DNA of 64,000 nucleotides, from the NCBI GenBank assembly GCA_017848755.1, contig JAFIHI010000091.1, positions 350 to 64,349 on the forward strand. The letters are read 5' to 3'. The notes beneath the pieces are model-generated. The model was not told the DNA's origin and made no database searches. It saw nothing but the letters and a program-made list of their open reading frames with translations. Shown piece by piece: positions 727 to 54,481 of this stretch (positions are counted from its first letter, which is position 1; each line of letters opens with the position of its first letter). Origin of the DNA: Nakamurella sp. (GTDB lineage Bacteria; Actinomycetota; Actinomycetes; Mycobacteriales; Nakamurellaceae). The translations under genes and the position numbers were made by a program.

Positions 727-777
727 GCGCGAACAGCGTCATATGCGATTCGGCACACCCCGGGGCGGCCGCAGCAA

Positions 778-1278
778 TTACTCCACACGCCCCTTGGCCC
801 GCCGGCCGAGATACCGCGAGACCTCGCGCTCCGAGTCCCGCTTCGCGATCGCCTGCCGCTTATCGTAGAGCTTCTTGCCGCGGCCGAGCCCGAGCTCCAC
901 CTTCACCCGCCCGTCGACGAAGTACAGGGACAGCGGCACCATCGTGTAGCCGCCCTCGCGGATCTTCGCCCCCCACTTCTCAATCTGCGCCCGATGCAGC
1001 AAGAGCTTGCGCGCGCGCCGCGGGGCGTGGTTGGTCCAGGTGCCCTGCACATACTCGGCAATGTGGACGTTGCGCAACCACACCTCGTCATCGGAGATGG
1101 TGGCGAAGCCGTCGATCAGGTTCGCGTGCCGGTCGCGCAGCGACTTGACCTCGGTACCGGTGAGCGAGATCCCGGCCTCGAGCGTATCCACGATCTCGTA
1201 ATCGTGGCGCGCCTTGCGGTTCGAGACGATCAGTGTGCGGCCTGCTGTGCGATCGGGTTTCGCGGACTTGTTCGACAT
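778..1278 (-). CDS. smpB: SsrA-binding protein
   Basis: [10 protein letters not shown]...[15 protein letters not shown]...[10 protein letters not shown]...[11 protein letters not shown]; next to tmRNA. Confidence 0.98.
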
Positions 1279-1353
1279 GGCAGGAGCCAGCGTAGCCGAG
1301 GGCCTAACAGCGAGTATGACGACGTTCGCGGCCTGCGCCGGATGGCGCCGCGG

Positions 1354-2241
1354 TTACAGCCGCACGTACAGGCGCAATGTCACATACGACGCGAGCCCGG
1401 CGAGTCCGACGGCGATCCCGCCGAGCCAGGGCGAGACCCATACCAGCGCCGTGCCGTCGATCGGCGGCAGGATGCCGGCATTCATGATTGAGCCGAGCGT
1501 CTTGTCCACGAACAAGTACTTCATGGCGACGAGCCCGCCGATCGCCAGGATCGCGCCGGTGACGGCCGCCACCACCGCCTCGAGGATGAACGGCATCTGC
1601 GTGCGCCATCGTGAGGCGCCGACGAGCCGCATGATCGACGTCTCGGTACGTCTGGTGTAGGCGGCGACTTGAACGGTGTTCGCGATCAGCAGGAACGCGG
1701 CGAGCGCCTGCACCAGCGCGACGATGATGGTCGCGTTGCGAATCCCGTTGAGCAGGTTGAAGAGTCGGTCGAGCGTCTGCGATTGGTCGGTCACCTGCTC
1801 GACGCCGGGGAAGGTCTCGTACCGCGCCTGGATCACCTTGTACTTCTGCGGATCCTTGAGCTTGACGTGCCACGAGGAGTTGAGGTCGGACGGCTTGGCG
1901 ATCTGCAACATCTCTGGCTGCCCGGCGAACATCTGCTGGTACTGCTGCCACGCGGCCGACTGGCTCTGGTACGTCACGCGATCGACGTCCGAATCCTTGT
2001 TCAGCGCATCGCCGAGCGCCTGGCACGTCTTCGCCTGGCAGTTCGGATCCTGGGACGAGACGTCCTTTGTGAGGTAGATGGTGACTTCGACCTTGTCACC
2101 GTAGATCTGGCGCATTTGGTCCGTCATGCGCGCGACGATCAGCCCGGCGCCGAGCAGGCACAACGAGATCGCGGTGGTCAGGATCATGGCGATCGTCATA
2201 GTGACGTTCCGGCGCAAACCCCGCAGTACGTCGGCAAACAT
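1354..2241 (-). CDS. ftsX: Cell division permease-like protein FtsX
   Basis: GLRRNVTMTIAMILT N-terminus, IANTVQVAAYTRRTETSIMRLVGASRW; downstream of ftsE. Confidence 0.95.
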   Translation of the reverse strand: MFADVLRGLRRNVTMTIAMILTTAISLCLLGAGLIVARMTDQMRQIYGDKVEVTIYLTKDVSSQDPNCQAKTCQALGDALNKDSDVDRVTYQSQSAAWQQYQQMFAGQPEMLQIAKPSDLNSSWHVKLKDPQKYKVIQARYETFPGVEQVTDQSQTLDRLFNLLNGIRNATIIVALVQALAAFLLIANTVQVAAYTRRTETSIMRLVGASRWRTQMPFILEAVVAAVTGAILAIGGLVAMKYLFVDKTLGSIMNAGILPPIDGTALVWVSPWLGGIAVGLAGLASYVTLRLYVRL

Positions 2242-2313
2242 TCGTGACGGCTCTTCTCGCAGTTCGGTGGGCAGGTGGTCGGCGATCGCTGGCGGTGTCG
2301 CTGCGCCGGGCGG

Positions 2314-3085: not shown

Positions 3086-3898
3086 TCAGTTCGCGGCGAG
3101 TTGGGCGCAGACGTCCGCATGTAATCGCCCATTGGTGGCCAGAGCGGACGTTGTGCCCGCGTCGATCGGCGAACCGTCGATCGTGGTGAACTCTCCGCCT
3201 GCGGCGATGACGATGGGTCCGAGTGCAGCCAGATCCCACAGCGAAAGCTCCGGTTCGGCGGCCACGTCGACGGCGCCCTCCGCGACGAGCATGTACGAGA
3301 AGAAGTCGCCGTAGCCGCGGGTGCGCCAGCAGGCACGTGCCAACCGGTGCATCTGTTCGCCGCGGTTTGCGTCTTCCCACTCGCCGAGGTCGGAGAGCGA
3401 CAGCGACGCGTGAGCCAGGTCGGCGACGCCGGAGACGTGGCAGTCCCGGACCGGCCCCCCGGCGAAGGCCGTGTGGGCGCCGGATCCCGGTGCCCCCCAC
3501 CAGCGGCGGACGAGCGCCGGCGCGGACACGACGCCGAGGGTCGGCGTGCCGTCGACCAGCAGGGCGATGAGGGTGGCCCAGATCGGTACCCCGCGGACGA
3601 AGTTCTTGGTCCCGTCGATGGGATCGATGACCCACGCGCGCCCAGCCGCCGCGCGCTCGGCCGGCGGCGTGTCTCCCCCGAACTCCTCCCCGACGACGAC
3701 GTCAGCAGGGCGCCGAGCCTCCAGGACCTCCCGCAGCGCCCGCTCGACTGCGAGGTCCGCGTCCGAGACGGGCGTCATGTCCGGCTTGGTGTCGACGTGC
3801 AGGTCCGCCGCATGGAACCGAGGCAGGCTGATCGCGTCAGCGGTGTCGGCCAGCGCGAGCGCGAGCGAAAGATCGTCTGCGGCGGCGAATGTCGTCAT
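3086..3898 (-). CDS. hisN: Histidinol-phosphatase (inositol monophosphatase family)
   Basis: [53 protein letters not shown]. Start set at ATG 3898; the ORF-track extension is the tadA antisense shadow. Confidence 0.9.
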
Positions 3899-3925
3899 AC
3901 CCGATGACACTACCGCCCGCGCAAC

Positions 3926-4003: not shown

Positions 4004-5227
4004 TTGCCGACCGCGACCCAGCACATCCATGACGAGGTTCGCGAGCTGGTGCGCCGGCGCGGCCTCGACCCGCTCAAGGATCCGCGCGGCACGCGCCTGC
4101 TGATCGACGAGGTCATCGGCCACTACGAGGAACGGGTGGCGACCTCGGCGCTGCCGCCGCTGCTCGACCGGGGCGACGCCGCGCGGTACGTGTTCGACCA
4201 GGTCGCAGGCTTCGGCCAACTGCAGCAATTCCTGGACGATCCCGGCGTCGAGGAGCTGTGGGTGAACGAGCCCGGGCGGGTCTTCGTGGCCCGCGGCGGG
4301 CGATCCGAGCTCACCACGGTGGTGCTGGGCGCCGATGAGATCCGTGATCTGGTTGAGCGAATGCTCAAACCGTCCGGGCGCCGCCTCGACCTGTCCAGCC
4401 CCTTCGTCGACGCCTTGCTTCCGGACGGTTCGCGGCTGCACGCGGTGATTCCCGACATCACTCGCGAACACCTATCGCTGAACGTGCGGAAGTTCGTGGT
4501 CGCGGCGAATTCGCTCGACGATCTCGTCGCCCGCGCGACGCTCCCCGCCCGCGCCGCACGCTTCCTGGAGGCGTCCGTCGCAGCCGGCCTGAACATCATC
4601 GTCTCGGGCGGCACGCAGGCGGGGAAAACCACCATGCTCGGCACGCTGGTGAACTCCATCCCGCCGCAGGAACGGGTGGTCACCTGCGAGGAAGTCTTCG
4701 AGCTGCGGCCGAACCTTCCCGACGTGGTCGCGATGCAGACGCGGCAGCCGAACCTGGAGGGGCACGGTGAGATCCGGCTGCGCCGGCTGGTGAAAGAAGC
4801 GCTGCGCATGCGGCCGTCGCGGATCATCGTGGGCGAGGTCCGGCAGGAGGAATCGCTCGACCTGCTGATTGCGTTGAACAGCGGGCTACCAGGGATGTGC
4901 TCGGTACACGCGAACTCCGCGCGCGAGGCCGTCACCAAGCTGTGCACGCTGCCGCTGCTGGCCGGGGAGAACGTGACGGCGCAGTTCGTCGTGCCGACCG
5001 TCGCGGCGTCGGTGGACCTGATCGTGCAGATGGGCCTGGAGGCCGACGGAACACGGCGCGTCCGCGAGATCGTGGCCGTTCCCGGACGGGTAGAGGGCGG
5101 CGTCGTGGAAACGGCCGACATCTTCACCACCAGCGACGGCGCGCTACTTCGGGCGGAAGGATTCCCGCCGCACGCCGACCGGTTCGCCCGCTGCGGGCAC
5201 CATTTGCCGGACCTGCTGAGCACGTAA
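4004..5227 (+). CDS. tadA: Tad pilus assembly ATPase CpaF/TadA
   Basis: [12 protein letters not shown], Walker [41 protein letters not shown]. Confidence 0.93.
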
Positions 5228-5410
5228 TGCCGCCGATCACTCCGGCTCGCGATCATCAGCGACAACACCGTTCTGCCCCCTACGCCTCGATTTCCGCGCT
5301 TTGCAAGGTCTTGCGCGAACATTGATTCACCCGTTTGTGCGGCAGAGCGGTGTTATCCCCGGAGGGCGTTAGCGCGTCATATACGTAGGGAAAGTAGCGA
5401 ACGGGGCGGG

Positions 5411-5974
5411 GTGGGATGCGTGGAGGGTGTTGTCAGCGAGCAGCGTGTATCGGCGAGAGCTTATGAGCCTGACGTGAGCGATGCCCGCGCCGCCGCGCAG
5501 GAGTTGTTCGCGTCCTCATATGTCAGCCTGGTGCGGCTCGCGGCGGCGACGCTGCGGGACCGGTCGTGGGCAGAAGATGTCGTGCAAGAGTCATTCGCCC
5601 ACGTACAGACGAAGCTCAATCAGCTGCGTGATCCGGACAGCGCACTTGCATACATGCGCAAGTCGGTGCTCAACCGCGCACGGTCCGAGTTGCGTCGCCA
5701 CCACAGCAGGTCGACTGGCGCGGTCGGCGACGGGCAAACGGGGGCCGTACTCGACGCCGAACATGAGGCGATGGCACGGCTTCGGCATTCCGAGCTGCTC
5801 GACCTGATCCACACTCTGCCGAAGCGGCAACGCGACATCGTTCTGCTTCGGTTCGTGCACCAACTCTCGCTCGACGAAGCCGCTTCGACACTGCGGATCA
5901 CAGTCGGCGCCGTCAAGGCATCCCAACATCGTGCGCTGGCGAAGCTCAAGCAACGCTTGGAAGGGCACATCTAA
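5411..5974 (+). CDS. ECF RNA polymerase sigma factor (SigE-like family)
   Basis: AEDVVQESF, AYMRKSVLNRARSELRR, LPKRQRDIVLLRF, GAVKASQHRALAKL. Start uncertain. Confidence 0.88.
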   Translation: MGCVEGVVSEQRVSARAYEPDVSDARAAAQELFASSYVSLVRLAAATLRDRSWAEDVVQESFAHVQTKLNQLRDPDSALAYMRKSVLNRARSELRRHHSRSTGAVGDGQTGAVLDAEHEAMARLRHSELLDLIHTLPKRQRDIVLLRFVHQLSLDEAASTLRITVGAVKASQHRALAKLKQRLEGHI

Positions 5975-6744
5975 TGGACGAATTCGAACGACGCGTCAGA
6001 GACGCGCTGAATGCCGACCTGCAATGCATCAATGCGCACACCGTTCGCAGGAGGTCGCTTCCGACAGCAGCATCGACGCCCCACCACCATCGCATCATGC
6101 CTATGGTCGCAACGGTTGCTGCCGTGGCCGTGGTGGCACTGGTCATGGGGATAATCGGCACACACAGTGCTGGCCGAGACATCTATGCGGCCGGCGGCGG
6201 TACGACGGCTCCATCCCCGTCCATTCGCCCAGGTCTCATCGAGGTGCAAGGCGCGGCGATATCGATTCCAGGCGGATGGCATGCCGAAGACGTCAGTAGT
6301 GTCGATGTCGACATCACAAATGCGTTCGGATACTGCCTGCTGCGAACCAACCACGAGATCCTTCCCACAGGATGCCTCGCCAGCGAGGGCATTTTAATCC
6401 GCTTGGCTCGGGTCAGGTCCGGTCAAGCGGTGGTCCCAGTGCAGGGCAGTTTCCAGTCAGACTGCACAGGCGCACCAACAGTGCCGACCCTGCACCAGCG
6501 GCCAGGCTCAATCGGCAACGAGCCTGCCACGATGGTCACCATCACTTGTGGAGACGACATCGGCGCAAGTAGTACCTACTGGGCCGTCTCCGACAGAACC
6601 GTCACCGTCCAATCGCCCTTCGATGGCGAACGAAGCCTCCCGATAGCCACATACGTCGCCGAGCACATCGAGTTGACGCAATGGAGCCATGTAATTCAGC
6701 CGCCAACGCCCGGCCGAACCCTATCGCCCACAACGGCAGGGTAA
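5974..6744 (+). CDS. Putative single-pass membrane anti-sigma partner
   Basis: TAATG overlap with the sigma gene. Short cytoplasmic N-terminus (DEFERRVRDAL), TM helix VATVAAVAVVALVMGIIG, Cys-containing extracellular part. Confidence 0.6.
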   Translation: MDEFERRVRDALNADLQCINAHTVRRRSLPTAASTPHHHRIMPMVATVAAVAVVALVMGIIGTHSAGRDIYAAGGGTTAPSPSIRPGLIEVQGAAISIPGGWHAEDVSSVDVDITNAFGYCLLRTNHEILPTGCLASEGILIRLARVRSGQAVVPVQGSFQSDCTGAPTVPTLHQRPGSIGNEPATMVTITCGDDIGASSTYWAVSDRTVTVQSPFDGERSLPIATYVAEHIELTQWSHVIQPPTPGRTLSPTTAG

Positions 6745-6904
6745 TCACGCTGCATACCCGCAAGTGCGCGCCGACGTGTCGATCCATGGCGACGGCACTC
6801 GCGACACCGTCCTACACCAACAATGTGGACCTGTGTCGCGAACTTCCGTCAGCGAAACCAGCTATAACGGAACTCAAAACCATTCTCCAGAAAGGAGCTA
6901 CTCT

Positions 6905-7465
6905 ATGAAGAAGCTGCTAGGTATCGTCGCTGCGACGCTGCTGGGCATTGCGATGTTCGCATTGCCGGCCAGTGCCGCACCGGAAACTGCCTTCTGCGTT
7001 CTTCCTAACGGTGGCCAAATGAGCTGCTATAGCACGCAGGCCGAGATGCTCAGGGTCGCATCAGGAGGCCGAATAAATCTTTCTGACAAGGCGACGGCGT
7101 TAGAAGTCGACGCTGCGATCGAACGATCCAATGCCGCAGCCAGCAAGCTCGCCGCTCCAACAGCTACAGTGATCCAAGCGAATCTGTGGACCGGTCAATC
7201 TAAGACTGGAAACCAGCTGACCTTGACCGCATCGGCACTGTGTACGAACGGTGGCGCTGGACCCTGGACATATTTTAATACTCCGTGGGCGAATAACATC
7301 GAATCGACCCAACTATACGCTGGCTGCTACGGCAGGGGCTACCACGACCCGAACCTTTCACCGCTAGGAGCATCGTACGGTTTCGGCTATGAAGTCTACG
7401 CCTCAACGCTTGGCGGCTTCAACAACCAGATGAACTCATTCAAGTCCTGCGCGGCGAGCTGTTAA
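6905..7465 (+). CDS. Secreted Cys-rich protein, possibly beta/gamma-crystallin-like
   Basis: RBS AAAGGAG; signal peptide MKKLLGIVAATLLGIAMFALPASA; six Cys; WANNIES and FNNQMNSF segments resemble crystallin-like repeats (inference). Confidence 0.7.
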   Translation: MKKLLGIVAATLLGIAMFALPASAAPETAFCVLPNGGQMSCYSTQAEMLRVASGGRINLSDKATALEVDAAIERSNAAASKLAAPTATVIQANLWTGQSKTGNQLTLTASALCTNGGAGPWTYFNTPWANNIESTQLYAGCYGRGYHDPNLSPLGASYGFGYEVYASTLGGFNNQMNSFKSCAASC

Positions 7466-7522
7466 TCGCCAATATGGGTTGACCACCGGATGACTGATCG
7501 ATCCCTCGGGCAACTGTTCTGT

Positions 7523-7567
7523 CGTGGTGCGGCCAGAGTAGCGAATAATCACTCTGGCCGCGCCGCG
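7523..7567 (+). terminator. Hairpin, probable terminator
   Basis: GCGGCCAGAGT (7529-7539) pairs with ACTCTGGCCGC (7551-7561) and can be extended with G-U pairs; ~60 nt after the secreted-protein stop. Confidence 0.55.
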
Positions 7568-7802
7568 GCAGGTATTTATCGGCGTGCAGGAGGATCAACC
7601 AGATGCGCCATCATGGCCTAGAGCCGATGTGCTAAATCATTCCCTCATGATTCGAACAACTCGGAGCGAGCCGGAACAGCCTCGAGGTAAACCGTTCTTA
7701 GCAAAGGCCCGTCCTTGAACTCTATGACCTCGTCAGCGCGCGATCGATGGCCTTGATCAGACACTAGTACCAACGGCCGAGAATATTAGGTGGAAATATT
7801 AG

Positions 7803-9023: not shown

Positions 9024-9329
9024 AGCCACCGGCACTTGTGGATGAATGACGTGCTGTCCGTCAGTCGCGCAGTCCGCGCCGACGCCGTACTCACGGTGGT
9101 GGGGCATCAACGGCGTCCATCTCGCCGACACACCTGCAATGGTCCATTTCGGGGCAACCTCGGCGAACGCGAGCATCGTCGCTCCATTGCAGATGAGCGC
9201 AACTGTTACGTCACGACTGCTCAGGTGGAAACCTTTGGAGCAGTCGTGCGCAGCGCGCAGGCTCGCCGCGACTCCTTGGTCAAATCAACGATCAAAGCAC
9301 GTTGCCGATGGCCGGGCTGCTCGGCTGAG

Positions 9330-10860: not shown

Positions 10861-11010
10861 TTTAGTGTATGACGCTGTTCCCGACCGCAGTCGTCCGGAT
10901 GAGGTGCCACGGTGGCCAACCCAGGAACCTCGCGCTAGGAACGCCATACCCCGAATAGGGGCTGGCCGTCGCCGCAACGACGAGCGACTCGGTCCGAATG
11001 ACGGATTCCG

Positions 11011-38909: not shown

Positions 38910-38921
38910 ATGAGGGAGACC

Positions 38922-43109: not shown

Positions 43110-43117
43110 AGGATGTC

Positions 43118-46067: not shown

Positions 46068-46570
46068 GGCTGCTCGGCCCGCGCGAACGTGAGCGTCTCG
46101 CCCCGCACGCCGCCCATCCACAGATCCTGCGCGGCGGCCGCCATCGCATCGAGGCCGACCACCACCGTCGCGAACACGTTGCCGGGCACCCATCCCTGAT
46201 CGCCGTTGATCAGCAGATTGTTGCGCCCGTAGAACAGGGCGAGATCGACCACGGCGCTTTCGTTGGCCGCGCCCTGCCCCTCGGCGTAGCCGTAGCCGGG
46301 GTTGGCGAGGTCGTCATCCGAGAACGAGAACCAGCACAGGTCGCCCGGGATCGGCGTGATGGTGGTGTTCTCGGATCCGGGGCTTTTCGGCGCGAAAACC
46401 GGTAGCAGTGCGTAGATCTCGTTGCGCGCGTATTTTGCGTGGTACACCTGGCCCGACAGCGGCAGCGCATCCCAGACCGCCGCGGCGGTACGCGGCGCTG
46501 CGTCATCGAGGAGTCGTGCGATGCATTGCACGCCATGGCTTTCCAACGTGATCGAGATGAACCTTGCCAC
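46064..46570 (-). CDS. DUF3830 family protein
   Basis: APRTAAAVWDALP...YHAKYARNEIY, ENTTITPIPGD, DLALFYGRNNLL. Confidence 0.85.
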   Translation of the reverse strand: MARFISITLESHGVQCIARLLDDAAPRTAAAVWDALPLSGQVYHAKYARNEIYALLPVFAPKSPGSENTTITPIPGDLCWFSFSDDDLANPGYGYAEGQGAANESAVVDLALFYGRNNLLINGDQGWVPGNVFATVVVGLDAMAAAAQDLWMGGVRGETLTFARAEQP

Positions 46571-46622
46571 TTCTTCCTGCCTTTCGTCGTGCTCGCGCCT
46601 GCCACAGATATGACGCGTCCCG

Positions 46623-48035
46623 CTACCAAGCGAGCAGCGTCGGGCGGCGGCGATGCCAATCAGTGCGCTGTTCGAATGCACGTGCCACCCGCAGCACCAG
46701 CCGATCGCCGTGCCGGGGGCCGACGATCTGCAGCCCGATGGGCCGGCCGTCGGCGGTGATGCCGCACGGCACGCTGGCGGCGGGCTGCTGCGTCATGTTG
46801 AACGGGTAGGTGTACGGCGTCCAGCTGGTCCACCATTCGGAGGTGGACCCGGCGGGGGTGTCACGGCCGACCTCGAACGCCGGGATCGGCAGCGTCGGGG
46901 TGATCAGGACGTCGTATCGCTGGTGGAACGCGCCCATCGTCTGGCCGAGCGACATCCGGACGGCGACCGCGTCCAGATAGTCGCCGGCGGTGAAGGCCTT
47001 CCCGAGTTCGGCGCAACGGCGCAGCAGCGGATCGATCGCGTCGAGATCCGACTCGGCGTAGTGCTCGAGCACCTTCGCCGCCCCGGCGAACCACAACACG
47101 TGGAAGGCCTCGGTCGGGTCGCCGAACCCCGGATCCGTCTCGGTGACATCCGCGCCGGCCTCGCCGAGAACCGCGACGGCAGAACGGACCGCGCGATCGA
47201 CCTCGGCGTCGTTCGCGGCGTATCCGAGATCCGGTGAGAAGCCGATCCGCACGCCTACGACACCAGACTCGATGCCGTCGAGAAAGGAGCCGCTGGGGGT
47301 CGGCATGGCCGACCAGTCCCGAGGGTCGAATCCGACGAGCAAGTCGAGCATGGCCGCCGCATCGGTCACCGACCGCGTCATCGGGCCCGCATGGGCGAGG
47401 GTTCCGAACGGGCTCGCGGGATAGTGCGGGACCAGCCCGTAGGTGGGCTTGAGCGCGGTGGTGCCGGTGAACGCCGCGGGAATTCGCACGGAGCCGCCGC
47501 CGTCGGTGCCGACGGACCAGGTCCCCATGCCCAGGCCCACGGCCGTCGCCGACCCTCCGCTCGAGCCGCCCGAGGTGAGCCCGGCCCCCCACGGGTTCCC
47601 GGTGGCGCCGAAGCGGCGGGAATCCGTGACGCCCTTCCAGGCGAATTCCGGCGTGGTCGTCTTGCCGATGAACACGCATCCCGCCTCGCGCAGCCGGGCG
47701 ACCGACGGCGCGTCCTCGGTCCAGGGGCCTGCGGCGTCGACCAGCGCCGAGCCGCGCAGCGTCGGCCACCCCTTGGTCAGGAGGATGTCCTTGACCGGTG
47801 TGGGCACGCCGTCGAACTCGCTGCGTGGGGCGCCGCCGCGCCAGCGCTGCTCTGCGTCGCGCGCCGCTGCGAGGGCGGCGGCCCGGTCGACGAATACGAA
47901 GGCGTGCACGTCGCCGTCGTGTGCCGCAACCGCGTCGAGCGCAGCGGTGACCGCTTCGACGGGCGAGACCTCACCGCGCGCGAAGGCGTCGGAAAGCTCC
48001 GTGGCCGAGGCCAGGGAAAGATCGGTGATCGTCAT
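46623..48035 (-). CDS. Amidase (amidase-signature family)
   Basis: GVPTPVKD, GKTTTPEF, GGSSGGS, GTDGGGSVRIPA, PFNMTQQPA. Confidence 0.92.
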   Translation of the reverse strand: MTITDLSLASATELSDAFARGEVSPVEAVTAALDAVAAHDGDVHAFVFVDRAAALAAARDAEQRWRGGAPRSEFDGVPTPVKDILLTKGWPTLRGSALVDAAGPWTEDAPSVARLREAGCVFIGKTTTPEFAWKGVTDSRRFGATGNPWGAGLTSGGSSGGSATAVGLGMGTWSVGTDGGGSVRIPAAFTGTTALKPTYGLVPHYPASPFGTLAHAGPMTRSVTDAAAMLDLLVGFDPRDWSAMPTPSGSFLDGIESGVVGVRIGFSPDLGYAANDAEVDRAVRSAVAVLGEAGADVTETDPGFGDPTEAFHVLWFAGAAKVLEHYAESDLDAIDPLLRRCAELGKAFTAGDYLDAVAVRMSLGQTMGAFHQRYDVLITPTLPIPAFEVGRDTPAGSTSEWWTSWTPYTYPFNMTQQPAASVPCGITADGRPIGLQIVGPRHGDRLVLRVARAFEQRTDWHRRRPTLLAW

Positions 48036-49030
48036 AGGCGCTCCTTGACGGCCGGCGGTACGAACCCCAGCCGCTTATCGACGATGTTGGCGAGCGGCCG
48101 CCCGGCGAGCCAACGTTCAGCGTTGTCGACGAACTGCGCGGCGAGCGTGTCCCACCAGCCGGTGAAATCCGCGCACATGTGCGGGGAGATGACGATGTTC
48201 GGCTCCGACCACATCGGGTCCGACGCAGGCAGAGGCTCCGTCTGGAACACGTCGAGCGTGGCCAGGCCTAGGTGGCCCGAACGGATGGCGACGAGCAGCG
48301 CGGTCTCATCGACGATAGGGCCGCGCGCGATGTTGACCAGGTGGGCTCCAGGTTTCATCGCCGCGATCACCTCGGCGTCGATGAGGCTGCGGGTGGCGTC
48401 GGTGAGCGGTGCGGCAACGACGACGTGGTCGGCCCAGCCGACGTGCGCGACAAGGTCGCTGCTCGCAATGATCTCGGAGAAATCGGGGTCGTCGGAGCGC
48501 GCGACCCGCGCGGCGCCGCGGACCCGGGCACCTAACATCGCTAGCACTCGGCCGATCTCTCGACCGATCTCGCCGGTGCCGACGACGAGCACGTTTTGCG
48601 TGGCGAGCGTCTCGGTCTCGCGGTGCTCCCAATGGCGGCGGGACTGCATCTCCCGCGAGAGGTGCAACTGTTTGAGCTTCGCGAGGATGGACGCCAGCAC
48701 GAACTCGGCGATGGGGCGGTCGAACACGCCGCGCGCGTTCGTCACGGTGACGGGCGAGCCCGCCAGATCGTCGAACAGCAGGGTGTCGACGCCCGCGGCC
48801 GCGACGTGGATCCACTCGAGCGAAGCGGCGCGATCCCACACGTCACGCACCGCGGACGAGAAGAAGTCCCAGAGGAACAGCACCTGCGCGCCGTCGACGG
48901 CGTCGGCCAGCTCGTCCGCCGTCGCCCAGCGCACGTCCATCCGATCGGTGATCCGTGCGAGGTCCGGCCGGGACTGCCCCGGTTTGCACAGCACGGCAAG
49001 AATGGGTCGCGCGGCGGTAGCGGTGGTCAC
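48032..49030 (-). CDS. D-2-hydroxyacid dehydrogenase
   Basis: WIHVAAAGVD, TNARGVFDRPIAEF, VVGTGEIG, VNIARG, LDVFQTEPL, ISPH. Confidence 0.9.
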   Translation of the reverse strand: MTTATAARPILAVLCKPGQSRPDLARITDRMDVRWATADELADAVDGAQVLFLWDFFSSAVRDVWDRAASLEWIHVAAAGVDTLLFDDLAGSPVTVTNARGVFDRPIAEFVLASILAKLKQLHLSREMQSRRHWEHRETETLATQNVLVVGTGEIGREIGRVLAMLGARVRGAARVARSDDPDFSEIIASSDLVAHVGWADHVVVAAPLTDATRSLIDAEVIAAMKPGAHLVNIARGPIVDETALLVAIRSGHLGLATLDVFQTEPLPASDPMWSEPNIVISPHMCADFTGWWDTLAAQFVDNAERWLAGRPLANIVDKRLGFVPPAVKERL

Positions 49031-49057
49031 TCCCGGAACTCTAATCGATATCGTAGT

Positions 49058-49069
49058 ATTGTCAACAAT
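49058..49069. promoter_or_regulatory. GntR-type operator ATTGTCAACAAT
   Basis: Palindrome between divergent genes; one of four copies. Confidence 0.8.
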
Positions 49070-49115
49070 CTGCGAACCGCTCGATTCGCGCTGCTCCCTG
49101 GATGACGAGGTTCCC

Positions 49116-49877
49116 ATGACCGACGCTCCTACCGCTCCACCGTCGCCCCGCGCGACGGACAATCTGCCCGACCTCTCGTTCGCCGGGATCGGGATCATCG
49201 CCCCGTACGATTTCGCACTCGATCGTGAGCTGTGGCGCTGGGCGCCGCCGGCCGCGAACCTGCACCTCACGCGGCTGCCCTGGGCTGCGCCGGAGGTCAC
49301 GATCGACATGGTGACATCGCTCGGCGACCCCGCCGAGCTGACGGCCGCCACCCGAGAGCTGACGACCGTCGGCCCTGCCGTCCTCGTCTACGCGTGCACG
49401 TCCGGCAGCTTTGTCGGTGGCATCGACGGCGAACACGCGCTGCGTCGGGTGATGACGGCCGCGGGCGCCCCGGCGGCGACGACGACGAGCGGCTGCATCG
49501 CCGAGGCGCTGGCGCATCTCGATGCGAACGCGGTCGCGATAGCTACGCCGTACACCCGCGACATCACCGAACGACTCGAGGCGTTCCTCGCCGCCCACGG
49601 CCACACCGTCGTCGGAGTCTCGGACCTTGGCATGCAGACCGAGATCTGGACGCTCGACTATCGCACGGTGGCGGATCTGGTCCGCCGCGCCGACCAGCCG
49701 AACGCCGACGCGGTCGTCATCTCCTGCACCAATGTGCCGAGTTACCACCTCATCGCGCCGCTGGAGGAGGAACTCGGGAAGCCGATCATCAGCGCGAACC
49801 AGGCGACGATGTGGGGGGCGCTCAAGGCGGCAGGCCTGTCGATCGTCGGTCCCGGTCAACGGCTCGTCGAGGCGTAG
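49116..49877 (+). CDS. Asp/Glu racemase - maleate isomerase family protein (EutA-like)
   Basis: GIGIIAPYDFALDRELWRW, YACTSGSF, ATPY, ISCTN, SANQATMW; both catalytic Cys present. Confidence 0.88.
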   Translation: MTDAPTAPPSPRATDNLPDLSFAGIGIIAPYDFALDRELWRWAPPAANLHLTRLPWAAPEVTIDMVTSLGDPAELTAATRELTTVGPAVLVYACTSGSFVGGIDGEHALRRVMTAAGAPAATTTSGCIAEALAHLDANAVAIATPYTRDITERLEAFLAAHGHTVVGVSDLGMQTEIWTLDYRTVADLVRRADQPNADAVVISCTNVPSYHLIAPLEEELGKPIISANQATMWGALKAAGLSIVGPGQRLVEA

Positions 49878-49999
49878 GCGTCGCCGCGCGGCCGGTGACC
49901 GCCCCGCCTCGATCGTGACACCGCGCCTGCGCGAGGCAGCGACGCGTGTGTGGCGCGCCTTGTCAGCCCACCATCCGAACATTTAGGCTCAATCCATTG

Positions 50000-50011
50000 A
50001 TTGTTGACAAT
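50000..50011. promoter_or_regulatory. GntR-type operator ATTGTTGACAAT
   Basis: Directly upstream of the ectoine hydrolase-like gene. Confidence 0.8.
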
Positions 50012-50035
50012 CTGCAACCGAAAGCAGGCTTCTCC

Positions 50036-51226
50036 GTGATCGCAGCAACATCCGACGGGCCGGATGCCGCCGAATACGCCGACCGACTCGCCCGGGTGCG
50101 CGCCGCCATGGCCGAGCGCTCGCTGTCGGCATTGGTGGTGGCCGATCCGGCCAATCTGTACTACCTCACCGGATACAACGCGTGGTCGTTCTACACCCCG
50201 CAATGTCTCGTCGTTCCGGCGGACGGCGATATCCGGCTGTTCGCCCGAGCCATGGATGCCGACGGCGCGACGAACACGACGTGGCTGCCAGCGGACCGGA
50301 TCGACGGCTATCCCGAAGAGCTGGTTCACCGGCCCGACGCGCACCCCTACCAGTGGATCGCGCGGCGCGCGGTGGAAACCGGCGTGCTGCCGCCCGACGG
50401 CACCATTGCGGTGGAGGGCGACGCGAACTTCTTCTCGGTACGCGGCTACCAGGCGCTCACCGCAGGAGTTCCCGGTGCGAGTTTCCAGGACAGCCGCGAG
50501 CTGGTGAACTGGGTGCGCGTGGTCAAGTCCCCGTACGAGCAGCAGATGCTGCGGATCGCCGGAACCGTCACGGACGGCGCCATGTCGACCGCGCTCGCCG
50601 CGATGGAAGCGGGCCGCCGTCAATGCGACGTGGTCGCCGACATCATGCATGCGCAGGCCGCCGGCACCGCCGAGCACGGCGGCGACTACCCCGCGATCGT
50701 GCCCATGCTGCCGACCGGCAAGACCGCCGGCACGCCGCACATGACGTGGAGCGACCAACCCTTCGTCGTCGGCGAGGCGACCACGATCGAGGTCGCCGGT
50801 GTCTACCTCCGCTACCATGTGCCGCTGGCCCGCACGGTCGTGTTCGGCACACCCGAGCGGCGCCTCGCCGCTCTCGCCGACACGATCACCGAGGGCATGG
50901 CGGCCGCCCTAGCAGCCCTGGCCCCTGGCGCCACGCCGCATCAGGCGCACGTCGCGTTCACCGACGTGATCAGCCGCGAGGGGTTCACCAAGGAGTCCCG
51001 CATCGGCTATTCGATCGGCATCGGATACCCCCCCGACTGGGGCGAGCGGACCGTGAGCCTGCGCGCCCATGACGACACCGAGTTAGTCGCCGGGATGGCG
51101 TTCCACGTCATCCTCGGCATGTGGATGGACGGCTGGGGCTACGAGCTCTCCGAGCCCGTGCTCATCACCGATCAAGGCGCCGAGCGGCTCACCCATCAGG
51201 AGCAGACCCTCACCGTGAAGGCGTGA
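50036..51226 (+). CDS. doeA: Ectoine hydrolase-like M24 family protein (DoeA/EutD)
   Basis: DPANLYYLTGYNAWSFY..Q, GDYPAIVPMLPTG, SRIGYSIGIGYPPDWGERTVSLR, characteristic of DoeA. Confidence 0.82.
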   Translation: MIAATSDGPDAAEYADRLARVRAAMAERSLSALVVADPANLYYLTGYNAWSFYTPQCLVVPADGDIRLFARAMDADGATNTTWLPADRIDGYPEELVHRPDAHPYQWIARRAVETGVLPPDGTIAVEGDANFFSVRGYQALTAGVPGASFQDSRELVNWVRVVKSPYEQQMLRIAGTVTDGAMSTALAAMEAGRRQCDVVADIMHAQAAGTAEHGGDYPAIVPMLPTGKTAGTPHMTWSDQPFVVGEATTIEVAGVYLRYHVPLARTVVFGTPERRLAALADTITEGMAAALAALAPGATPHQAHVAFTDVISREGFTKESRIGYSIGIGYPPDWGERTVSLRAHDDTELVAGMAFHVILGMWMDGWGYELSEPVLITDQGAERLTHQEQTLTVKA

Positions 51227-51231
51227 TCCGC

Positions 51232-52437
51232 ATGTCCGTACTGCCTCTCGCCGCTCGCGCCACCGGGCTGGTCGGCTCCGTCATCGACTCGTCGACATCG
51301 CTGCTGGCGAGCCAGACGCACGACATCGTACGGTTCGCCATGGGTAGTCCGGCTGCCGAGGCGGTGCCGAGTGCCGTTCTCGCCGAGATCGCGGCGACGG
51401 CCCTCGGAGCCGCGGCGGCCGACGCCTATGGCTATGCGGCGACCGAGGGCGATCCGCCGCTTCGTGAGGCGCTGCTCAAGGTGCTCGAGGGCACATCGGA
51501 CGCGACGACCGCTGACCGCCTCATGATCACCGCGGGCGGAATGCAGGGTCTGGACCTCGGCTTCAAGATGTTCGTCGACCCCGGCGACCTCGTCATCGTC
51601 GAGTCGCCCACCTACACCAACGGAAGCTCGACGGCCCTGTCGTACCAGGCGGAGCTGCTCGAGGCCCCGCTCGATGACGACGGTCTCATCGTCGAGCAGC
51701 TGCCGGACCTCGTCGCGCAGGCCGGACGCACCCCGAAGGTCATCTATACGATCCCGACGTTCCAGAACCCGTCCGGAACCACGATGTCGCTTCGGCGCCG
51801 GCAGCTGCTCGTGGAGCTCGCGAACCGCTGGGGCTCGGTCATCATCGATGACGACCCCTACGGGCTGCTCCGGTTCGAGGGCGGACCGGTCCCCAGCCTG
51901 CGCGAGGTCGCGGCCGGCGACCCGCTGGTGTTCTCGGTCCGCACGTTCTCCAAGATCATCGCGCCGGGTTTGCGCGTCGGCTGGGTCGACGCGGATCCCG
52001 GCCTGCAGCAACTGATGATCAACGCGAAGCAGGCGATGGACACCTGCACGAACCTGCCTGCGCAGCGGCTCGTGGCCGAGTTCCTTGGGAGCGGTGCGCT
52101 CGCCGGCCACCTGGCCGGGCTCCGCGACGAATACCGGCACCGCAAGCACGCGATGCAGCAGGCGTTGTCGGACCATCTCGGCGACATCGCGCACTGGACC
52201 GATCCCCAGGGCGGATTCTTCCTGTGGGTGACGCTGACCAACGGAGTCGACACCCAGCAGCTGTTCGAGACGGCGCTCGCCGAGGGCGTCGCGTACATCC
52301 CCGGGCCCGCGTTCTCGGCCTCGGGCCGCTTCCACGACGCGCTGCGGCTCTGCTTCGCGTCGACCACGCCGGAACGCACCGACCTAGGCGTCCGGCGGCT
52401 GCGTCGCGCCATCGACCGCGGCGCGGCGGGGCAGTGA
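51232..52437 (+). CDS. Class I/II PLP aminotransferase (ARO8/MocR-like)
   Basis: ESPTY, YTIPTFQNPSG, DDDPY, RTFSKIIAPGLRVGW, PQGGFFLW. Confidence 0.88.
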   Translation: MSVLPLAARATGLVGSVIDSSTSLLASQTHDIVRFAMGSPAAEAVPSAVLAEIAATALGAAAADAYGYAATEGDPPLREALLKVLEGTSDATTADRLMITAGGMQGLDLGFKMFVDPGDLVIVESPTYTNGSSTALSYQAELLEAPLDDDGLIVEQLPDLVAQAGRTPKVIYTIPTFQNPSGTTMSLRRRQLLVELANRWGSVIIDDDPYGLLRFEGGPVPSLREVAAGDPLVFSVRTFSKIIAPGLRVGWVDADPGLQQLMINAKQAMDTCTNLPAQRLVAEFLGSGALAGHLAGLRDEYRHRKHAMQQALSDHLGDIAHWTDPQGGFFLWVTLTNGVDTQQLFETALAEGVAYIPGPAFSASGRFHDALRLCFASTTPERTDLGVRRLRRAIDRGAAGQ

Positions 52438-52438
52438 C

Positions 52439-53638
52439 ATGGCGATCTCGAGCGCGGAGCAGCGCGTTCTGGATCTCGTCGACGACGCCGAGATCGTGGC
52501 TGTCGCGCAGGCTCTCGTCCGAGCGCCCGGCGAGAATCCGCCCGGCGGCGAGGGCCCGACGGCGCAGGTGCTCGCCGCCGAGGCGGGTCGCCTCGGGCTC
52601 CGTTGCCGGATGGTCGACGTGGCGCCGGACCGGCCGAACGTCTCGGTCGTCGCCGACGGCGGCAGCGAGCCGGGCCTGCTGCTGCTGGGTCACACGGATG
52701 TCGTGCCGATCGGCGACGGCTGGACCGTCTCACCCACCGGCGGCGAGATCCGGGGTGGGCGTCTGTACGGCCGCGGCAGCACCGACATGAAGGGCGGGCT
52801 CGCCGCCGCTCTGGTCGCCATGGCCGCGATCCAGCGTGCCGGGGCCCGGCTGCGCGGGCCGATCGAGCTGGCGGCCGTCGTCGACGAGGAGGAGAACGGG
52901 CTGGGCGCGCGGGCGCTGATCGCCGAGAGGGCCGCGGATCCAGCAGCGCCCGCCTACCGCGCGTGCGTGGTCGCCGAGCCGACCGACTTGCAGACCATCA
53001 TTGCCGCGCGCGGCGCCGCCTATTTCCGCGTGAGCGTCACGGGCAAGGCGGCGCACGCCGGCAATCCGGCCGACGGAGTGAACGCGATCTACGGTGCGGC
53101 CGCGATCATCGGCGAGATCGAGCGGTGGCACCGCCAGCTCGCGGTCGACGCCCGGCCGCTCATCGGACCGGCGACGTGGAATGTCGGGACCGTGCGCGGC
53201 GGCACCGGCGGCTCGATCGTGCCCGCGGAATGCGTCATGATGGTCGACCGGCGGCTGCTGCCCGGCGACGACCCGGTGCAGATAGAAGCTGAGTTGCGCG
53301 CGCGCATCGATGCGTTGGGTGTTGCGGCGGCCGAGATGTCGGTGACCGTGGAGACGCTGATGGCCATGCCCGGTTTCGAGACGCAGCCGGACCACGCCCT
53401 GGTGACCACGGCGCACGATGCCATCCGCGAGGCCGGCGGCCCGGATCTTCCGCTCGGCGGCTGGACCGCCGCATGCGACGGCGGATATGTGCAGCGCGCC
53501 GAGGGCACTCCGGTCATCGTGCTCGGACCCGGGTCGGTGCAGACCCAGGCGCATCGCGCGGACGAGTCCGTCGGTGTCGCCGAGCTGGTGACGGCGGCGC
53601 GCGCCTATGCGCTCATCGGCCTCCGCCTGCTCAGCTGA
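52439..53638 (+). CDS. M20 ArgE/DapE family deacylase
   Basis: LLGHTDVVP, GRGSTDMKGG, VDEEE, VVAEPT, HAGNP, AHRADE. Confidence 0.88.
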   Translation: MAISSAEQRVLDLVDDAEIVAVAQALVRAPGENPPGGEGPTAQVLAAEAGRLGLRCRMVDVAPDRPNVSVVADGGSEPGLLLLGHTDVVPIGDGWTVSPTGGEIRGGRLYGRGSTDMKGGLAAALVAMAAIQRAGARLRGPIELAAVVDEEENGLGARALIAERAADPAAPAYRACVVAEPTDLQTIIAARGAAYFRVSVTGKAAHAGNPADGVNAIYGAAAIIGEIERWHRQLAVDARPLIGPATWNVGTVRGGTGGSIVPAECVMMVDRRLLPGDDPVQIEAELRARIDALGVAAAEMSVTVETLMAMPGFETQPDHALVTTAHDAIREAGGPDLPLGGWTAACDGGYVQRAEGTPVIVLGPGSVQTQAHRADESVGVAELVTAARAYALIGLRLLS

Positions 53639-53659
53639 CCGCGTGCGGTCGGTCGCCGG

Positions 53660-54481
53660 TCAGTGGCCGAGCACCGCGCCGAGGAACTTCCGCGTCCGCT
53701 CGTGACCCGGCTCGTGGAAGATTTGCTGCGGCGGTCCGCTCTCGACGACCACGCCCTTATCGAACATCACGACGCGGTCCGAGATTTCCTCGGCGAAGCG
53801 CATCTCATGCGTGACCATCAGCATCGTCATATCCGCAGAGGTCGCCATCTCGCGGATCACGCCGAGCACCTCACCGATCAACTCCGGATCCAGTGCGGAC
53901 GTCGGCTCGTCGAACAGCATCACCTTCGGGCGCATCGCCATCGCGCGGGCGATCGCGACCCGCTGCTGCTGTCCGCCCGACAGCTGCGCGGGACGATGCT
54001 GCAGATGTTGTGCGAGCCCCACCTGCGCAAGCAGGCCCTCCGCCCGCTCGCGCGCCTCCGGCTTCGCCAGCCCGAGCACCCGGACGGGCGCCTCCATGAC
54101 GTTCTCCAGCGCTGTCATGTGCGGGAAGAGGTTGAAGGACTGAAATACCATGCCGACACTGCGCCGCGCATCCCTGCTCTCGCGGGTGAGCTTCGGCTTG
54201 TCGCCCGGCTTCACGTCCCACAGCCGGCTGCCACCGACGATGACGGCGCCCTCGTTCGGCGTCTCCAAGGTCATCAGGATCCGCAGGATCGTGGTCTTGC
54301 CGGAGCCGGACGGACCGATGATGCACACCTTCTCGCCGGCCTGCACGTCGAAGTCAAGGCTGCGCAAGACGTGGTTCGATCCCCACGACTTGGTGACCCC
54401 GCGGAACGAGATCATCACGCTCGGGTCCGGCTGGACGGACCTCGCGGCCGTTGCGGCGACGTCAGATTCTATTGAGGGCAA
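53660..54481 (-). CDS. ehuA: Ectoine/hydroxyectoine-type ABC ATP-binding protein
   Basis: [42 protein letters not shown]; last gene of the ehuBCDA-like operon. Confidence 0.8.
   Translation of the reverse strand: MPSIESDVAATAARSVQPDPSVMISFRGVTKSWGSNHVLRSLDFDVQAGEKVCIIGPSGSGKTTILRILMTLETPNEGAVIVGGSRLWDVKPGDKPKLTRESRDARRSVGMVFQSFNLFPHMTALENVMEAPVRVLGLAKPEARERAEGLLAQVGLAQHLQHRPAQLSGGQQQRVAIARAMAMRPKVMLFDEPTSALDPELIGEVLGVIREMATSADMTMLMVTHEMRFAEEISDRVVMFDKGVVVESGPPQQIFHEPGHERTRKFLGAVLGH

Follow-up and report, generated by a model that had tools for sequence, protein, structure and literature searches.

The 64-kb window, the whole stretch of DNA analysed here, carries smpB, ftsX, tadA, nhaA, tadB, prfB and an ada/alkA gene, together with a lower-GC island and an accessory catabolic cluster, and copies of the heptamer TATGACG are dispersed through it (Table 1). 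The earlier note had listed at least 29 TATGACG/CGTCATA sites, and all 29 were recovered, 14 on the forward and 15 on the reverse strand, against an expectation of 4.64 +/- 2.13 and a maximum of 12 in dinucleotide shuffles. Genome-wide (3.85 Mb), TATGACG occurs 1,554 times (781 + 773 per strand), and by maximal-order Markov z TATGAC ranks first among 6-mers (1701 versus 861). The over-representation is confirmed, and it is stronger than first reported.

Table 1. Copies of the word, and regions poor in it, in the 64-kb window of G000, with their state in the sister species G042
Feature	Position	Strand	Setting	G042
Full-length copy CGCATATGACGCTGTT(CGCG)	732..747	-	Spacer downstream of smpB	Conserved; flanks differ
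Full-length copy CGAGTATGACGACGTT(CGCGGCC)	1311..1326	+	smpB-ftsX spacer, points against both genes	Present; flanks with indel and substitutions
Core-only	2194..2200	-	Inside ftsX; G000-only	CATGACG
Near-full copy CGGGTATGACGACATTCGCC	3893..3899	-	Upstream of tadA	Present
Lower-GC island, no extended copy	5225..9339		Between tadA and nhaA/tadB	Absent
Core-only, without flanks	5375..5381	-	Edge of island	Island absent
Full-length	9840..9855	-	Inside nhaA, reads TAT GAC GCT GTT; missing from nhaA of G014 and G086	Present, divergent flanks
TATGACGCTGTTC, without 5' CG	10868..10880	+	nhaA-tadB spacer	Present
Core-only	14428..14434	-	Aldehyde-dehydrogenase-like gene	Core present
Full-length CGGGTATGACGCTGTT(CG)	15806..15821	+	Spacer upstream of prfB; two copies in this spacer in G086	Present
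Core-only	16229..16235	+	prfB, TAT Tyr codon	Synonymous TAC
Left-half CGGATATGACG	19718..19724	-	ABC permease gene	Present
Left-half CGCGTATGACG	21450..21456	+	Intergenic	Present
Near-full CGGATATGACGTATTCCGCG	22825..22831	-	ada/alkA gene	Present
Core	22983..22989	-	ada/alkA gene	Present
Two cores 15 bp apart	24625..24646	+	Downstream of glutamate dehydrogenase gene; both G000-only	Differs by point substitutions
CGAGTATGACGCTGCTTC	26102..26108	-	Intergenic	Full GTTC form
Core-only	26856..26862	+	DMFA2-like gene	Present
Core-only	26916..26922	+	DMFA2-like gene	TAC
G-variant full copy CGGAGATGACGACGTT	29794..29809	-	Missed in earlier count	
CGAATATGACGAATTTCCG	31849..31855	-	Intergenic	
CGAGTATGACGATGTCC	32112..32118	+	Intergenic	GTTC
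G-variant full copy CGCCGATGACGATGTT	32657..32672	-	Missed in earlier count	
Left-half CGCGTATGACG	33920..33926	-	Coding	Present
G-variant full copy CGCCGATGACGTTGTT	34593..34608	+	Missed in earlier count	
Core-only	37946..37952	-	Antisense to gene; G000-only	
Tandem pair CGAATATGACGATTATGACGACGTTCGCGGCG	40577..40607	+	Intergenic, cores 9 bp apart; a 9-bp duplication in G000, because G042 has one copy	Single copy
Core	40736..40742	+	Coding	Present
Accessory catabolic cluster, motif-poor, no extended copy	44278..62431		Three flank-less cores	
Flank-less core	46609..46615	+	Accessory 44-62 kb cluster	
Flank-less core	48030..48036	-	Accessory 44-62 kb cluster	
Flank-less core	53825..53831	-	Accessory 44-62 kb cluster	

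TATGACG is the core of a non-palindromic word of 17-24 bp, A-N-CG-RR-(T>G>C)ATGACG-MY-GTTCGCGG, of which CG-NN-x-ATGACG is the invariant portion and in which G is the commonest tolerated variant at position 0. Its architecture is two-part, the left half being constant and the right half varying by lineage, and similarity among copies ends at ~24 bp, with none further out. The form CGNNTATGACGNNGTTC, with 13 specified bases, is present in 461 copies genome-wide (reversed control, 0), and CGNNBATGACGNNGTTC in at least 660 copies in 3.85 Mb. The longer identities that had been seen to recur are real: CGNNBATGACGNNGTT occurs eight times in the window against 0.08 expected, a count that takes in three (G)ATGACG variants at 29794, 32657 and 34593. 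Exact and one-mismatch copies of the strict 17-mer stand at 461:476 genome-wide, the comparable ratio for the neisserial DUS being ~2.4 (PMC2397512).

The signal lies in the DNA itself; codons, protein, RNA or promoters do not account for it. When synonymous codons are permuted within each gene, so that protein sequence and codon usage are preserved, the core is expected 189 times in sense and 44.5 times in antisense orientation in coding DNA but is found 538 and 284 times, and the extended form is expected 2.9 and 1.1 times but found 88 and 83 times; the enrichment is 2.8-6.4-fold for the core and 30-75-fold for the extended form, figures that, like all coding/non-coding figures here, depend on a crude in-house gene caller. 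The genome-wide k-mer enrichment thus survives a codon-aware control, which the earlier note had proposed as a check. Identical flanks accompany the core whichever of five reading frames it occupies, and they do so on either coding strand as well as in spacers. The commonest coding frame is TAT GAC G, in line with the reported use of the disfavoured TAT Tyr codon, and two window sites have TAT where G042 has TAC.

The word is also strand-symmetric. Strand counts per contig are consistent with 50:50 (chi2 86, 130 contigs), motif strand is not correlated with GC skew (rho 0.15, p 0.21), and convergent, divergent and tandem spacers all contain copies, which may point either way, unrelated to the direction of neighbouring genes. 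A replichore-polarised architecture motif, one of the alternatives raised before, is rejected by this lack of replichore or transcription polarity, and the same strand-skew check leaves the uptake reading standing. Chi (RecBCD/AddAB) and KOPS/SRS (FtsK/SpoIIIE) are likewise short, non-palindromic words, over-represented in the core chromosome, by which own DNA is marked; they are strongly skewed with replication direction, whereas the present word divides 50:50 between strands within the 64-kb window and on each contig.

Enrichment is seen in only five of 77 genomes of the genus (G000, G042, G014, G056 and G086). A five-marker tree groups these genomes together with moderate support (89/65), which is compatible with one clade. 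The word is confined to one small clade of this Nakamurella-like genus, and its 3' halves are lineage-specific (...GC[CA]GCC in G014, ...NTNTCCTC in G056 and ...CCGCCTCGCG in G086).

Across 233 kb of G000 aligned to its sister species G042 (91% identity), 45 intergenic cores are common to both genomes, seven are G000-only and six G042-only, a retention of 87% against a neutral expectation of 0.867^7 = 37%. Conservation tracks the logo, with identities of 86-98% at specified positions, 76-86% at N positions and 87% in flanks; DUS are likewise conserved (97% versus 85%; PMC2397512). The word is maintained by purifying selection or drive, and the comparison with related genomes that had been called for thus finds it both conserved in G042 and restricted to a clade with dialects. 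Where G000 differs from G042 or from motif-less relatives, sequence length is unchanged and the changes are substitutions, frequently in clusters: copies originate by substitution, not insertion. Nine spacer sites are positionally shared between G000 and G014, of 34 and 15, and that most are not shared counts against position-specific roles.

Spacers and the shared (core) chromosome are richest in the word. Its density is ~8 times higher in intergenic than in other DNA, and spacer copies lie a median of 43 bp from the preceding stop codon versus 142 bp to the next start codon. Spacing between copies looks random, with no regularity. At short range inverted pairs are preferred (79 inverted versus 31 direct within 150 bp), some of which form hairpins, and an inverted partner is present for only ~9% of intergenic copies. 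In G042 the extended motif reaches 0.30/kb in DNA shared with G000 versus 0.05/kb in unshared DNA (p 1e-5). There are zero copies on a 20.7-kb conjugative-element contig and on four other contigs of at least 10 kb, and multiple copies were found on no viral contig. Within the window, the motif gap described at the lower-GC island is confirmed: no extended copy lies in 5225-9339, one flank-less core at 5375 being just inside its edge, and G042 aligns on both sides of the island but not within it. The 44-62 kb cluster is sparse in the motif, as had been described, and is missing from G042; part of it (44278-52434) has no orthologue in G042, G014, G086 or G056. The island encodes an ECF sigma gene.

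Of the mechanisms considered, a DUS/USS-like tag for uptake or self-recognition fits best, a preference that is tentative. A sequence-specific DNA-binding protein would recognise the word as marking own-species DNA, its most likely use being biased uptake of conspecific DNA in natural transformation, as an analogue of the neisserial DUS and pasteurellacean USS. Fragments bearing the word would be more often taken up and recombined, and through this molecular drive copies would accumulate and spread through the core genome; they would persist under mutation-selection balance, and newly acquired DNA would remain without them. Generic uptake machinery for such a process is present in G000: two Tad pilus loci, a ComEA-like gene, ComEC and DprA. 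All predictions of this reading that were examined in silico hold, namely codon-aware enrichment, lack of polarity, use of all usable frames, clade restriction with dialects, conservation above that of flanks, depletion in accessory and mobile DNA, and the machinery itself. The earlier note's proposal of an uptake sequence serving the Tad system is thus partly supported by the sequence data: the uptake part agrees with these predictions, whereas the Tad link is non-specific. Close relatives without the motif (G002, G039) have the same Tad locus, ComEC and DprA, and ComEA genes too occur in motif-less relatives, so that no competence gene tracks the motif, and no clade-specific receptor for the word was found. 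To our knowledge, natural transformation has not been documented for the genus, and no uptake-sequence-type element has yet been described in Gram-positive bacteria; this Nakamurella-like actinobacterium and its four closest relatives have many hundreds of conserved copies of a word that is DUS/USS-like in silico.

Several observations count against uptake. The intergenic enrichment is stronger than the 2-3-fold of DUS/USS, and the spacing seems random, not regular. No gene tracks the motif, and every feature shown would also be compatible with a different clade-specific DNA-binding protein for which the copies are binding sites. The proportion of intergenic copies with an inverted partner is also low; about half of DUS/USS are located in terminators (10.1101/2025.10.24.684340).

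An array of binding sites for an abundant clade-specific DNA-binding protein without any role in uptake is somewhat unlikely. This protein could be a nucleoid-associated or chromosome-organising factor, or could recognise a self marker for defence or repair, Chi-like but without polarity. Dispersed protein binding under selection would also give a DNA-level motif, its maintenance, core-genome bias and clade restriction; a word with a constant left and a variable right half would suit a monomeric or two-domain binder, and the lack of a tracking competence gene is in keeping with this alternative. Known chromosome-structuring motifs, however, either are polarised, as KOPS and Chi are, or number only a few and are regional, like matS, parS, SBS and NBS, whereas the ~1,500 copies here are unpolarised and randomly spaced, and no candidate protein was identified.

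A selfish miniature repeat without cell function, consisting of solo MITE or transposon terminal-repeat remnants or of a ~20-bp gene-conversion patch, is improbable. Concentration in spacers, clustered substitutions at new copies and convergent inverted pairs 30-150 bp apart, which resemble TIR-flanked mini-elements, speak for it, as does the left half, which is similar to GGGG-TCTGACGCT, the sequence with which Tn3-family inverted repeats begin. REP/BIME and MITEs are likewise abundant short interspersed repeats in spacers, sometimes in inverted doublets. However, REPs are imperfect palindromes, extragenic only, that travel with a Y1 transposase (RAYT), the gene for which is found in 0 of 12 genomes, and MITEs are marked by TIRs, target-site duplications and insertion polymorphism; these traits of REPs and MITEs do not apply here. 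Similarity stops at ~24 bp, G000/G042 differences are point changes and not presence/absence indels, and convergent pairs show no excess over divergent ones at IS-scale distances (27 versus 28). Moreover, genes contain ~40% of copies, which occupy five frames and leave length unchanged, the conservation of copies follows the logo position by position, unlike that of decaying relics, and viral contigs with multiple copies are lacking.

It is very unlikely that the word is a by-product of context-specific mutation or repair bias (VSP repair plus methyltransferase) or the target of a modification system. Two or three CpGs in the motif, a lineage specificity that would fit a gained enzyme and the GAAC/GTTC of the right half, which we take to be a known phosphorothioation context, favour such an origin, but the specificity of at least 13 bases and the >100-fold excess exceed VSP-type biases (~5 bp, <2-fold effects), and genomes normally avoid restriction/modification targets rather than enrich them. 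G000 lacks Vsr, whereas G039 and G034, which are motif-less, have it; Vsr thus does not track the motif, and the methylation or repair origin suggested before finds no support.

A transcription signal, whether a sigma-F/sigma-B-type -10 box (G[GA]GTAT), an ATG start without a leader or one arm of a terminator hairpin that lacks a U-tail, is hardly credible: the SigF/SigB group has GGGTAT, contained in CGGGTAT, as its -10 consensus, ATG ACG NTG TTC can be read in many spacer copies, copies lie nearer the preceding stop than the next start, and sequence downstream folds slightly better than controls (-21.8 versus -19.7 kcal/mol), but there is no -35 element or upstream consensus, orientation is independent of neighbouring genes with convergent spacers equally populated, the motif is equally well formed within genes on either strand, a called gene begins at only 61 of 670 non-coding cores, and a hairpin partner is rare. 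Each of the readings as Chi/KOPS, REP/RAYT, MITE, promoter or Vsr was contradicted by a test.

The uptake or self-recognition reading draws on likeness to two known systems. Neisseriaceae DUS, AT-GCCGTCTGAA with its dialects, has the minor pilin ComP as its receptor. Like DUS, the Nakamurella word is short and non-palindromic, occurs in hundreds to thousands of copies on both strands, is present within genes but at higher density in spacers, exceeds its flanks by far in conservation and has dialects that follow phylogeny (PMC2397512, PMC3630211); new copies differ from the homologous sequences by more than single point mutations would produce, and hairpin-forming inverted pairs are shared with both DUS and USS. 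Unlike DUS, it has another sequence and belongs to another phylum (a Gram-positive, high-GC actinobacterium) and a much narrower clade, five species-level genomes in one genus; no type IV pilus ComP homologue is implied, any pilus involved being Tad/Flp. Its intergenic bias is stronger and its terminator-like pairs far fewer. Pasteurellaceae USS have AAGTGCGGT / ACAAGCGGT cores with extended flanks and, like the word, combine a core with a weaker extended consensus (~25-30 bp), fall into lineage types (two subclade types in USS), occupy several reading frames at permissive protein positions and reach a density on the order of one per 1-2.5 kb (PMC1626085, PMC2817400). USS flanks are AT-rich, helically phased tracts, whereas the second module of the Nakamurella word is the GC-rich GTTCGCGG.

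The window contains 29 copies of the heptamer TATGACG or its complement CGTCATA (the core), 14 on the forward and 15 on the reverse strand, all at the positions at which an earlier note, made from the sequence alone, had placed a candidate DNA-uptake-like word; dinucleotide-preserving shuffles yield 4.6 +/- 2.1 copies and never more than 12. The source assembly (G000) is a fragmented MAG of 3.85 Mb in 259 contigs (68.7% GC), in which the window is C241:350-64349; the best outside match of its prfB gene is to a Nakamurella sp. MAG (81%). The whole genome holds 1,554 cores (781 + 773), and TATGAC heads its list of enriched 6-mers when tested against a maximal-order Markov model (1701 vs 861, z 28.6). 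Alignment of all copies shows the core embedded in a larger word, A(-6) N C(-4) G(-3) R R TATGACG M Y G T T C G C G G. No similarity extends past ~24 bp in this alignment; thus, the motif is not a piece of a longer repeat. The strict 17-mer CGNNTATGACGNNGTTC has 461 genome copies and its reversed pattern none, and a further 476 copies carry one mismatch (39 variants pooled; reversed control 0 exact and 2 one-mismatch). Single-mismatch counts define CG-NN-x-ATGACG as the invariant part. Position 0 is mostly T (461 copies), less often G (150) or C (54) and rarely A (6), so the motif family is larger than the earlier note had counted. The form CGNNBATGACGNNGTT occurs 8 times in the window, against 0.08 expected.

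The signal resides in the DNA rather than in the encoded proteins. The flanking consensus is identical across five reading frames, both coding strands and non-coding DNA. Coding copies translate as xYD[DA]V, N[ISG]VI.., MT[LM]F and other peptides scattered along the length of genes, and the sole frame without copies is the one that places TGA in phase. When synonymous codons are shuffled within genes, preserving both protein sequences and codon usage, 189 sense and 44.5 antisense coding cores are expected and 538 and 284 are observed; for the extended form, 88 sense and 83 antisense copies stand against 2.9 and 1.1 expected, an excess of 30-75x. The enrichment therefore persists against a codon-aware model, under which the earlier note had expected a spurious signal to vanish, and a protein or codon artefact was rejected on the constant flanks and on this residual excess. 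The motif is shown to be a selected word at the DNA level.

The genome of the sister species, G042 (40 contigs, 98% complete, perhaps from an isolate), is syntenic with the window at ~91% identity. Among alignable window sites, 17 are shared, 7 occur only in G000 and 5 only in G042; those that differ do so by point substitutions, among them several synonymous TAT/TAC exchanges, with a 9-bp duplication at 40590 as the sole exception. Over 233 kb of aligned sequence, 45 intergenic cores are shared, 7 are confined to G000 and 6 to G042, a retention of 87% compared with 37% predicted from the 86.7% identity of the flanks. Identity per position tracks the sequence logo (CG 95-97%, core 86-98%, GTTC 86-95%, N positions 76-86%, flanks 87%). 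Purifying selection or drive acts on the motif. At the greater distance of G014, whose proteins are ~76% identical to those of G000, the core is found in 34 (G000) and 15 (G014) of 104 orthologous spacers and in 9 common to both (odds ratio 3.8, p 0.03); copies are turned over and accumulate independently. Motif-less relatives have sequence of equal length at alignable G000 copies, with many clustered differences.

The reference set comprises 77 genomes of the family, all of one genus. Among the 30 genomes nearest to G000, the strict 17-mer occurs in G014 only (41 copies). The left half of the motif, CGNNTATGACG, scanned in all 77 genomes against a reversed control, is strongly enriched in only five: G000 (1,097 vs 23), G042 (1,147 vs 21), G014 (384 vs 16), G056 (335 vs 45) and G086 (274 vs 11). 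The remaining genomes are mostly at about the control level, about ten having a mild excess of at most ~5-fold. By one protein, G002 and G039 are nearly as close to G000 (79-81% vs 77-83%), and they contain 0.01-0.04 cores/kb in 160 kb each; an alternative dialect in these two motif-less relatives was rejected, no other word being over-represented in the same 160 kb each. A single-gene tree is compatible with one origin of the motif, and a 5-marker tree, ((((G000,G042),G014),(G086,G056)),G002),G039),G048, gives moderate support to the five motif-rich genomes forming one clade. Lineages diverge in the right half, which is MY-GTTCGCGG in both G000 and G042, C[CA]GCC.. in G014, NTNTCCTC in G056 and CCGCCTCGCG in G086. 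In a few metagenomes, a version with 19 specified bases is repeated on very long contigs, with both motif strands on single contigs of 220-690 kb. Many exact motif 21-mers, on both strands, are carried by Ga0209963_1000041 (692 kb), Ga0209963_1000071 (444 kb) and ERZ778018 NODE-32 (304 kb, cov 287), and such contigs would make chromosome-scale mapping of the motif possible.

Motif copies are concentrated in DNA that the lineage holds in common. Within the window, 24 cores lie in 35 kb alignable to G042 and 5 in the remaining 29 kb; in a sample of G042, the extended motif occurs at 0.30/kb where the sequence is shared with G000 and at 0.05/kb where it is unshared (p 1e-5). The lower-GC insertion that splits the tad genes (see table) is motif-poor and is missing from G042, which aligns on either side of it. 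For the listed stretch of the catabolic cluster, no orthologue exists in G042, G014, G086 or G056; partial matches are best (69-77% nt) in G039, a more distant genome, and the stretch is therefore regarded as accessory DNA of uncertain origin. Five contigs of at least 10 kb have no motif copy, including C126, C31 and C8. C126 (20.7 kb) encodes a 1,187-aa TrwC-like relaxase/helicase, ParB-like and primase-like proteins and an NlpC/P60 hydrolase; its relaxase, ParB and primase genes make an integrative/conjugative element or plasmid probable. C31 (14 kb) carries a second complete Tad/Flp locus beside a gene for a 1,189-aa BTAD/LysM-type protein. C8 (22.6 kb) has a second ftsX, cytochrome-c biogenesis genes and Mrp-like genes, and is possibly mis-binned. 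In this lineage, the motif sharply distinguishes own from foreign DNA; it flagged an integrative or conjugative element, two islands and a possibly mis-binned contig. A phage origin was rejected, only single chance-level matches being found among 2.9 million viral contigs.

Coordinates of islands, repeats and additional words in the window and elsewhere in the source genome (G000)
Feature	Location	Setting	Content
Lower-GC insertion, 4.1 kb	window 5225-9339	between tadA and nhaA/tadB	ECF sigma factor and neighbours
Catabolic cluster part	window 44278-52434		flank-less cores only
TGTGGATAAC	window 3926-3935, 11011-11020, 33501-33510		
Tandem repeats	window 43830-43966 and 38718-38907		39-bp tandem repeat, 3.5 copies, 85-90% identity; also 23-bp and 14-bp spacer tandem repeats
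Array of TATGACGTCA(T)	C55:17032-17080	divergent spacer	three units with palindrome TGACGTCA, within 50 bp
DnaA-box-like words	C98:10560-10640	clustered between motif copies	GGTTATCCCCA, GATCCACA, GATATCCACA

To our knowledge, sequence-selective DNA uptake is known in two proteobacterial families only, and the origin of uptake specificity is a long-standing question. The motif resembles the DNA uptake sequences (DUS) of Neisseriaceae and the uptake signal sequences (USS) of Pasteurellaceae in its copy number, in its strand symmetry and, less clearly, in its inverted pairs, in having copies within genes in tolerated frames and a higher density between genes, in being far better conserved than its flanks, in its bias toward the core genome and its absence from recent acquisitions, in having new copies diverged too far for a single mutation to explain, and in forming dialects (PMC2397512, PMC3630211, PMC2817400, 10.1101/2025.10.24.684340). 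Abundance, strand balance, a clade with dialects, conservation and core-genome enrichment, by which DUS and USS are recognized, are all found here. The genome also encodes a ComEA-like protein, its gene adjoining that of ComEC, and DprA, and the window includes the Tad pilus genes tadA, tadB and tadC and genes for TadE-like pseudopilins. However, motif-less relatives have the Tad locus, ComEC and DprA just as G000 does, so none of them is singled out as the specificity factor. The Tad locus was rejected as a specific partner since the motif-less G002 has the same locus and pseudopilins, and the link to the Tad system proposed in the earlier note is not specifically supported.

By analogy with DUS and USS, we tentatively read the motif as a self-DNA tag that would be bound by a sequence-specific protein, most probably during DNA uptake, and whose copies would spread through a drive of uptake plus recombination. 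More tentatively still, it may constitute a DNA-uptake (self-recognition) sequence system, the first outside Proteobacteria, in a young Nakamurella-like clade with sequence-selective transformation, possibly via a Tad/Flp pilus and ComEA/ComEC, its 17-24 bp tag already splitting into dialects. If the tag does guide uptake, uptake sequences would extend to Gram-positive bacteria and Tad pili, and tag-free sister species that share the machinery would make the receptor findable by pan-genome contrast. The main rival, in which a DNA-binding protein specific to the clade serves another role, is possible but rather doubtful. Whatever the function of the tag, near relatives share the pilus and competence genes of the clade and lack the tag, and the second half of the tag differs by lineage; the clade appears to have gained a genome-wide tag recently, offering a natural before/after comparison of genome saturation by a recognition word.

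That the motif is a selfish mini-repeat is improbable, this explanation having failed at least one direct test. Derivation from a MITE or solo TIR is contradicted by the ~24-bp limit of similarity, by G000/G042 differences that are substitutions and not indels, and by the lack of any excess of TIR pairs at IS scale. A REP/RAYT system would not account for a non-palindromic motif with ~40% of its copies inside genes; solo copies fold only slightly better (-21.8 vs -19.7 kcal/mol) with no strong hairpin adjoining, and none of 12 genomes has the RAYT Y1 transposase PF01797. Lacking the defining features of either class, the motif was assigned neither to longer repeats or MITEs nor to REP/RAYT elements.

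Mutation or modification bias is a highly improbable source, having likewise failed at least one direct test; a Vsr-driven bias was rejected because Vsr is not co-distributed with the motif, being missing in G000, G014, G086 and G056 and present in the motif-less G039 and G034. A transcription signal, which also failed at least one direct test, is very unlikely. With 3,415 genes and 85% coding sequence called by a crude codon-usage caller of our own, which makes coding and non-coding figures approximate, the ~15% of the genome called non-coding holds 43% of cores and 61% of strict copies, at ~8x the density in genes. Spacer copies number 0.57 per kb in convergent, 0.37 in divergent and 0.50 in tandem spacers, with 62 copies oriented with and 82 against gene direction in tandem spacers and a weak tendency toward the 3' ends of genes. 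With this placement and orientation, the motif cannot be a promoter, a 5'-UTR element or an RNA element. A sigma-F/sigma-B-type promoter was rejected for want of a -35 element or upstream consensus and for an orientation independent of genes, and a leaderless start or terminator for the same indifference to gene orientation and the small folding effect.

A polarized word of the Chi/KOPS type was rejected on the 14+/15- split in 64 kb and the lack of over-dispersion among 130 contigs. Replichore polarity, which the earlier note had held would tell against uptake, is not seen in this fragmented assembly, where strand counts fit 50:50 and are slightly under-dispersed (chi2 86 over 130 contigs). 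Per contig, strand bias is uncorrelated with GC skew (rho 0.15, p 0.21) and weakly correlated with gene strand (rho 0.23, p 0.046), the latter owing to the sense excess among flank-less cores.

Spacing between copies, roughly 2 kb, is near random (CV 0.93 vs 0.99), save for a surplus of close pairs. Leaving out the tandem class, pairs within 150 bp comprise 79 inverted (48 convergent, 31 divergent) and 31 direct pairs. Some convergent pairs form hairpins made of the motif, a GC stem and the reversed motif, and only ~9% of spacer copies have an inverted partner; in DUS and USS, inverted pairs are frequent and serve as terminators. Direct pairs at exactly 9 bp (n=25) are arranged so that the CG of one core doubles as the 5' CG of the next. 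A special staggered-cut mechanism for these 25 tandem cores was dropped given the shared-CG spacing and because period-9 duplications are common, ~17 two-copy examples occurring in the 64-kb window.

Three further words or groups of words are listed in the table. The word TGTGGATAAC has 11 genome copies, 10 of them intergenic, with one copy 68 nt upstream of tadA and another lying 126 nt upstream of tadB. Reverse-complemented, it reads GTTATCCACA, a perfect 9-mer of the DnaA-box type; it was rejected as a 'competence regulon' box because it matches the reverse complement of a DnaA-box consensus and because, besides tadA and tadB, the genes downstream of it are not competence genes. The C55 array looks like an operator array separate from the dispersed motif, and the cluster of DnaA-box-like words on C98 marks a possible oriC region.
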